A stretch of DNA of 6,286 nt, from the IMG/VR virus record IMGVR_UViG_2711768074_000010; one strand, 5' to 3'. Shown here in pieces: positions 3,195 to 3,797 of this stretch. The notes below the pieces were generated by a model. It searched no databases, had not been told where the DNA came from, and saw only the letters and a program-made list of their open reading frames with translations. Positions within the stretch are counted from its first letter, which is position 1. Each line of letters begins with the position of its first letter. The translations under genes and the position numbers were made by a program. This DNA is from a virus (taxonomy: Duplodnaviria > Heunggongvirae > Uroviricota > Caudoviricetes).

Positions 3195-3797
3195 TCATGG
3201 CATGGCCATGAGCATTTTCACGTCCGCATCACCGTCTGCTGACGTCTGTGGCACGCCACCCTGTACCGCAGCCGGTGAATGGTTCGCCATGATGCGTTCA
3301 AACAGGGCGGTTGTGGATGCAGAGACCGGTTCTGCCTTACCTGATCCCGCAGCCAGCACAGCCCGGGCGCTCTCCACAGTCATTCCCGGGCAGGCAGCCA
3401 GCTGTTCAGCCTGCGCCTCAGCCCCTTTTTCCTCATCCAGTGCCATGATCTGATCACGGAGTGAGGGTCCGGCATCCGCCTGCGGTGAAGCAGCCAGGAT
3501 CGGGCGGGCTTTTTCCACCGTCATCTCCGGCATCGCCGCCAGCGTTGCCGCCAGTTGTTCACGACCGTTCGCTTCTTCACACGCCATAATGCGATCGGCT
3601 TCACTCTGCGCGGATGCCACCGGCTGCTGCGGTGCCGCCGCGGCCAGAATCGCCCGGGCCTGTTCAACGCTCATGCCCTGTTGTCCTGCCAGCATCGTGG
3701 CAAGCTGTTCACGTCCTTTCGCTTCCTGGCATGTCAGGATCCCCATCACTCGCTGGTTCTCCTGCGCGGCGGCTTCCGTTGCAGTTAATTGCGGCAT
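3195..3797 (-). CDS. nu3: Nested in-frame scaffolding protein (lambda Nu3-like), translated from an internal start within C
   Basis: In-frame ATG (Met302 of the C ORF, minus-strand codon at 3795-3797) preceded by GAGGAGG (plus 3802-3808) with a 4-nt spacer. In lambda the scaffold Nu3 is likewise expressed from an internal start in the C frame. Predicted product is 200 aa and contains the triplicated motif. Inferred from the RBS and lambda precedent only. Confidence 0.55.
   Translation of the reverse strand: MPQLTATEAAAQENQRVMGILTCQEAKGREQLATMLAGQQGMSVEQARAILAAAAPQQPVASAQSEADRIMACEEANGREQLAATLAAMPEMTVEKARPILAASPQADAGPSLRDQIMALDEEKGAEAQAEQLAACPGMTVESARAVLAAGSGKAEPVSASTTALFERIMANHSPAAVQGGVPQTSADGDADVKMLMAMP

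Follow-up and report, generated by a model that had tools for sequence, protein, structure and literature searches.

Procapsid assembly and portal incorporation in phage lambda both depend on the internal scaffold Nu3, which is degraded by C, a protease that has its C-terminus in common with Nu3 (PMC3224144). Nu3 interacts with itself, with C, with B and, by two-hybrid assay, with E, none of these interactions having been mapped to a particular module (PMC3224144). The equivalent genes of phage 21 are genes 5 and 6, and in the record of its head operon (M81255) gene 6 bears three repeat regions named 'Tri1 box', 'Tri box' and 'Tri3 box' and labelled 'function unknown; putative'. We take Smith & Feiss (Gene, 1993) to be the source paper of this record; our literature searches, which did not reach the phage 21 head-gene paper, found no description of these repeats. 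Here, we analyzed the corresponding gene in a 6,286-nucleotide (nt) stretch of DNA from a member of the Caudoviricetes, IMG/VR record IMGVR_UViG_2711768074_000010 (the whole stretch is referred to as the window). The gene encodes a prohead protease/scaffold fusion homologous to lambda C and phage 21 gene 5, and its scaffold part comprises three tandem, diverged copies of a module of approximately 40 amino acids (aa) followed by a single-copy tail. These units are the Tri boxes of phage 21 gene 5/6, and with a probability of roughly 70% we regard them as protein-interaction modules through which scaffold and protease would be recruited into the shell.

Three tandem units in the scaffold part of the C homologue

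The repeat region was divided into the following features.

3633-3758, minus strand: unit 1 (U1; Tri1), NQRVMGILTCQEAKGREQLATMLAGQQGMSVEQARAILAAAA, aa 315-356, hidden Markov model (HMM) score 78.7 bits
3600-3632, minus strand: linker 1, PQQPVASAQSE, aa 357-367
3483-3599, minus strand: unit 2 (U2; Tri2), ADRIMACEEANGREQLAATLAAMPEMTVEKARPILAASP, aa 368-406, HMM score 80.0 bits
3459-3482, minus strand: linker 2, QADAGPSL, aa 407-414
3342-3458, minus strand: unit 3 (U3; Tri3), RDQIMALDEEKGAEAQAEQLAACPGMTVESARAVLAAGS, aa 415-453, HMM score 74.4 bits
3198-3341, minus strand: single-copy C-terminal tail, aa 454-501

An earlier reading of the window (the original prediction) had placed three tandem, diverged copies of a motif at 3345-3755, an interval that agrees with the units at 3342-3758. 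The local BLOSUM62 scores between the units ranged from 80 to 102, compared with 26-28 ± 5 in 1000 composition-preserving shuffles (z-scores of 10.7-14.6), and the observed scores were attained in 0 of the 1000 shuffles. The units repeat with a period of 47-53 aa and share 15 invariant columns. Unit 1 has a longer first helix, like the single unit of lambda, and unit 3 carries GAE in place of GRE. The length of linker 1 differs among the homologues.

At the DNA level, the units were 57-67% identical over an ungapped core of 31 codons, and just 7-9 of the 17-19 residues identical between units were encoded by the same codon. Tandem Repeats Finder and a DNA repeat finder returned only fragments of 12-15 nt with a spacing of 141-156 nt; the copies are too diverged for such programs, and the repeat therefore needs to be analyzed at the protein level. 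Conservation is shown here to act on the protein, not on the DNA, and both the tandem arrangement and the divergence of the copies claimed by the original prediction are borne out.

The gene in the window and phage 21 gene 5 are both 1506 nt long and could be aligned without gaps, with a nucleotide identity of 98.2% and 13 amino acid differences in 501. When moved onto the window via this alignment, the Tri1, Tri and Tri3 boxes map to 3627-3730, 3480-3590 and 3336-3449, i.e., U1, U2 and U3, respectively. As judged from the alignment, the triplication is already known, being the annotated Tri-box repeats of phage 21 gene 5/6.

A single unit in lambda C/Nu3

Lambda C was found to contain exactly one unit (aa 358-399), as the original prediction had stated. 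The lambda unit matched U1, U2 and U3 with z-scores of 21, 17 and 11, respectively, and with identities of 49-62% (59.5% for U1). Like members of the lambda C/Nu3 family, the C homologue of the window has both the Nu3 core module and a C-terminal tail. The repeat had been proposed to explain why the protein is about 60 aa longer than lambda C. This is roughly right, albeit only as a net figure: the C homologue exceeds lambda C by 62 aa in total, and the gain in the unit block (139 versus 42 aa; +97) is offset by the segment preceding the units (314 versus 357 aa; -43, mainly through a shorter linker), with the tail adding a further 8 aa (48 versus 40 aa).

The scaffolds themselves are alike in length, 200 aa here and 201 aa in lambda, but they begin at different points. 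The nested scaffold gene and its ribosome-binding site (RBS) are located as follows.

3195-3797, minus strand: nested in-frame scaffold gene, the analogue of phage 21 gene 6 and Nu3, 200 aa, ATG at 3795-3797
3802-3809, minus strand: Shine-Dalgarno sequence AGAGGAGG, 4 nt upstream of the internal ATG, read directly

The two phage 21 records (M81255 and the re-sequenced OL657228) annotate the equivalent of this gene as gene 6 or scaffolding protein, in frame within gene 5 and with its own RBS, which lies at the position equivalent to that of the Shine-Dalgarno sequence in the window. The internal start Met was nearly invariant across 14 homologues. We infer from these comparisons that translation of the nested scaffold starts at the ATG at 3795-3797.

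Lambda Nu3 has its annotated start at Met239 of C, within the protease domain. The corresponding position in the window, codon 236 of the C homologue (3993-3995), is an ATT coding for Ile, so this start is not conserved. The internal start of the phage-21-type phages aligns with Met309 of lambda C, which itself has AGGAGG upstream (the lambda start coordinates compared were L003 2333 and 2543).

The tail and the supposed fourth repeat

The original prediction also described a fourth partial start after the third unit, and this did not hold. The tail includes a helix, ALFERIMANH, and ends in DADVKMLMAMP. The segment FERIMAN (aa 466-472) showed no significant similarity to any of the units (z-scores of -1.5 to 0.3), but aligned with 'ALDRLMQGAP' in the lambda tail at a z-score of 2.1 and reads EHFMAN in phage 21. 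Thus, the segment belongs to a conserved, single-copy tail helix that is present in lambda too, and it is not a decayed repeat. Since the phage 21 protein differs by R469H and I470F in this helix, the tail encoded in the window resembles the start of a repeat more than the phage 21 tail does.

Antiquity of the three-unit layout

Our first homologue search with the 200-aa scaffold as a query gave mostly gene fragments, and the full-length protein was used as a query afterwards. Three units followed by the tail, all in one register, were found in prophages of Salmonella (Gifsy-1 type), Trabulsiella and Providencia, as well as in one metagenome protein. Identities between units at the same position in different genera were 78-83% for U1, 65-77% for U2 and 58-59% for U3, and those between the paralogous units within the window were 46-56%. 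The closest relatives of U1 and U2 were the same-position units in another genus (77% identity between U2 and unit 2 of Salmonella). The top match of U3 was a unit of P0031, a protein of a different E. coli prophage lineage (62%), followed by unit 3 of Trabulsiella and Salmonella (58-59%). As the same-position units across genera exceed the paralogues in identity, the triplication predates these lineages. This position-wise pattern shows the three-unit layout to be ancient and each position to have been conserved separately. Among 35 distinct three-unit alleles, no unit had fewer synonymous than non-synonymous variants (9:7, 10:3 and 14:10), in line with conservation at the protein level.

P0031 possesses four units, of which units 2-4 are 81-89% identical to one another; on account of this identity, we regard P0031 as a separate and more recent amplification. 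Among the close E. coli relatives of the C homologue (the 120 best matches, P0090-P0209), the number of units varies with the length of the protein.

451-aa class: 2 units, a U1/U2 hybrid plus U3
452-aa class: 2 units, U2 deleted
472- and 482-aa classes: approximately 2.5 units, half of U2 remaining
501-aa class: 3 units
551-aa class: 4 units, a U3/U2 hybrid inserted
657-aa class: 5 units

The 482-aa form was the commonest cluster class in these 120 best matches, with one sequence occurring on at least 1000 contigs. The hybrid units in the length variants suggest unequal recombination between diverged units, because hybrid junctions are what such recombination would produce.

We then searched 1.84 billion representative proteins with a profile of the unit and found 820 matches at an E-value of 0.001 or less. 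The best 150 of these 820 carried one unit in 139 proteins, two in 8 and three in 3. On the sequences compared, a single copy is the norm of the family, and the multi-copy condition is a minority state with more than one origin. A genome scan with patterns that were over-narrow recovered 5 loci, and a scan of IMG/VR recovered near-identical three-unit loci only.

Several homologues with unusual architectures were encountered. In the E. coli proteins P0174 (577 aa) and P0169 (721 aa), the units are intact and the tail is replaced right after unit 3 by an unrelated sequence, which is His/Gly-rich or tail-fibre-like; these proteins probably stem from prophage rearrangements or from chimeric assemblies. 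The contig L091 encodes at 1601-4135 a protein of 844 aa (P0272), in which the N-terminus of a tape-measure protein (TMP_2) is fused to the S49 protease and the scaffold. Tail genes lie upstream of this fusion and D, E, FI, FII, Z and U lie downstream, making L091 a rearranged lambda-like contig. A distant C homologue with two units was found on L089, a JGI metagenome contig bearing GpA terminase, portal_2, S49, HDPD and Phage_cap_E. The head module of L089 is followed by Phage_base_V, GPW_gp25 and Baseplate_J, combining a lambda-type head with a baseplate of the contractile-tail type.

Predicted fold of the units

The AlphaFold model of a single unit consists of three helices with a predicted local distance difference test (pLDDT) score of 87. 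The same helix pattern recurs in each unit in the model of the 200-aa scaffold, in which the linkers score under 50-60; linker 1 falls below 50 at residues 56-62, and linker 2 is non-helical. The units are thus predicted to be independent three-helix mini-bundles on disordered linkers. The tail was modelled as two helices with pLDDT values of 50-67.

Foldseek searches with the 200-aa and single-unit models yielded nothing below an E-value of 2, with generic small-bundle matches only. A sequence search against the PDB gave no match even at an E-value of 10, and NCBIfam holds no model that covers the scaffold part. Neither the sequence nor the fold searches related the units to the coat-binding domain of P22 gp8.

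These results do not agree with the proposal in the original prediction that the motif is a C-terminal, capsid-binding helix-turn-helix. That proposal was an analogy: the structure prediction gave a three-helix bundle for each unit rather than a helix-turn-helix or a two-helix hairpin related to the P22 domain, and the units are not C-terminal, as they end at aa 453 and are followed by the tail of 48 aa. The original prediction further suggested that a triple-valent scaffold could change the stoichiometry or kinetics of procapsid assembly. The E proteins of the three-unit phages and lambda are 342 and 341 aa long, respectively, and the genomes of cultured three-unit phages are 43-54 kb in size, compared with 48.5 kb for lambda with its one unit. 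Since the genome sizes and E lengths are similar and relatives carry 2-5 units, a gross effect of the three units on the outcome of assembly is unlikely.

Candidate roles of the units and the tail

We favor the reading in which the units serve the internal scaffold as modules for protein-protein interaction. They would form a flexible string of beads, in which the predicted bundles are joined by linkers of 8-11 aa. Via the units, the scaffold and the protease with the same C-terminus would be recruited into the assembling shell; a unit might self-associate, bind the E-type coat from the inside, bind the portal or do more than one of these. Gene context cannot discriminate between coat and portal, because the genes of the head module stay together as a whole, also in a distant phage that carries baseplate genes. 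Three copies would raise the valency and reach relative to lambda, in which an acidic linker of 49 aa takes up part of the length, and the protease would degrade the whole region after assembly. The number of copies would drift by unequal recombination between the units, apparently being tolerated. It is rather doubtful that the module number is instead a naturally tunable parameter, with valency setting the loading of scaffold and protease or the speed of nucleation and being selected in each lineage.

The extreme C-termini of the scaffolds of P22, phi29 and 80alpha make the contact with the coat. By analogy, the single-copy tail (aa 454-501) may be the coat-contacting element here, and the units may be modules for oligomerization or spacing, by which the scaffold is given its length and reach. 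We regard this alternative as possible but clearly the less probable one. In lambda, the phage-21-type homologues and distant relatives alike, the tail comes after the units; the variants with 2 to 5 units still have one copy of it; and its residues F166, M170 and D190 were invariant across 14 homologues. The scaffold is also kept at approximately 200 aa in both lambda and the window despite the different make-up. Self-interaction of Nu3 has been reported (PMC3224144), and the P22-type analogy takes the scaffold C-terminus as the coat contact (PMC11922011), both of which would suit such a division of labor. Nevertheless, the tail is the part least conserved relative to lambda, with 35% identity in a weak alignment (z-score of 2.1) compared with 62% for E and 49-62% for the units, and the model confidence of the tail is lower than that of the units.

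Alternatively, the boxes could be cis-acting sites in the DNA or RNA, such as CII-type boxes or a promoter for antisense transcription, with the protein repeat being secondary. OL657228 annotates two TTGYNNNNNNTTGY 'CII binding sites' in the gene, both of which are found in the window on the plus strand (3545-3558 and 3779-3792). However, TTGYNNNNNNTTGY occurs at chance level (2 observed versus 1.09 expected; two or more in 55 of 200 shuffles), and it is the amino acid sequence and register that are kept across genera, the DNA copies being diverged as described above and using different codons for identical residues. The repeat region had no match in Rfam, and scans for promoters and terminators found none within 3342-3758, all of the sites in 3100-4000 lying outside the repeat. 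The antisense open reading frames (ORFs) over the repeat in the ORF list are short and without support. A role of this sort is thus highly improbable.

We give hardly any weight to the possibility that helices 2 and 3 of each unit form a helix-hairpin-helix (HhH) DNA-binding motif, through which the scaffold or protease would touch DNA. The pattern L-x-x-x-P-G-M-T-x-E-x-A-x-x-L does resemble HhH, and Pfam HHH gave a weak match on unit 3 (E-value of 0.0086). The HhH model (PF00633) was rejected as an assignment, as its score of 16.3 bits, on unit 3 only, falls short of the gathering threshold of 24. Finally, although the region is Ala-rich and went unreported by Tandem Repeats Finder, the chance that the repeat is an artefact of Ala/Gln/Glu-rich composition, a concern that the original prediction had itself named for Ala and Gln, or a duplication made in assembly or sequencing is practically nil, because no shuffle attained the observed scores, the copies are diverged, and the three-unit layout is present in two independent sequences of phage 21 and in 85-87 other loci.

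The head operon surrounding the C homologue

All of the long ORFs of the window are on the minus strand and comprise a lambda-type head operon, including the following genes and domain.

4690-6282, minus strand: portal gene, 530 aa
3195-4700, minus strand: prohead protease/scaffold fusion, lambda C/phage 21 gene 5 homologue, 501 aa
3822-4469, minus strand: S49 (SppA/ClpP-like) serine peptidase domain, aa 78-293
2811-3158, minus strand: D/shp decoration protein
1725-2753, minus strand: major capsid protein E

The C homologue matched PHROG 53, head maturation protease, with an E-value of 5.7e-228. Its aa 146-293 matched Pfam PF01343 (Peptidase_S49) with an E-value of 5.1e-35 and a score of 121 bits (cut-off, 24.9), and its aa 78-291 matched TIGR00706 (SppA_dom) with a score under the cut-off of that model. 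The S49 domain lies in the N-terminal two thirds of the protein, and the gene is flanked by the portal gene on one side and by the decoration and major capsid genes on the other, both as in the lambda C/Nu3 family. Its start codon is a GTG (4698-4700), and its first 11 nt overlap the portal gene, which ends at 4690; the same is true of phage 21; the overlap between B and C in lambda is 20 nt.

Downstream of E, the window carries FI-, FII-, Z- and U-like genes. The identities to lambda were 61% for B, 52% for D and 62% for E. In a megablast search, the window was 93-96% identical to phage-21-type phages (phage 21, ev017, 4A7, PhiR12 and others) over 93-98% of its length. By these matches, the window is a phage-21-type head operon of an E. 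coli prophage.

Positions 1-112 of the window were 100% identical to the end of ISEc13, an insertion sequence (IS) of the IS4 family, with the junction at approximately 112/113. The similarity to the tail terminator gene U begins only at 113, after ISEc13, and the C-terminus of the U ORF (40-399) is therefore foreign. As the IS junction lies inside U, the window probably derives from a prophage with a disrupted tail terminator gene.

Comparison with known systems

The present findings alter little, as the repeat was already annotated and the gene is 98% identical to the phage 21 gene. What they add are the predicted three-helix bundles, the position-wise conservation across genera, the one-copy norm and the natural variation between 2 and 5 units among close relatives. 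These variants may serve as material for locating the part of a lambda-type scaffold that binds the coat, the portal or the scaffold itself, and for examining whether valency has any importance.

Phage 21 (M81255; OL657228) is the closest described system, with the same nested gene of 200 aa, the same RBS and three repeats at the same positions. Apart from the two substitutions in the tail helix, the differences include A364T, A373V and E424A in the units or linker 1. Unlike in phage 21, gene U beside the copy in the window is cut by an IS element. The homologues of Gifsy-1-type Salmonella, Trabulsiella and Providencia prophages are 46-65% identical to the C homologue; their unit 3 keeps GRE where the window has GAE, and some of them bear a longer C-terminal extension (IPGT...).

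Lambda shares with the window the S49 domain (63% identity), the gene order B-C/Nu3-D-E, and a homologous unit and tail. In lambda, however, the single unit is preceded by the acidic linker of 49 aa, for which approximately 13 aa stand at the same place here. P22 gp8 is likewise an internal scaffold whose C-terminal part includes a small helical element, and a functional analogy is plausible; that element is a terminal helix-loop-helix, whereas the units of the window are repeated, acidic, non-terminal and predicted to be three-helical. In their tandem three-helix domains, the units as modelled resemble staphylococcal protein A, which we regard as a structural analogue only.
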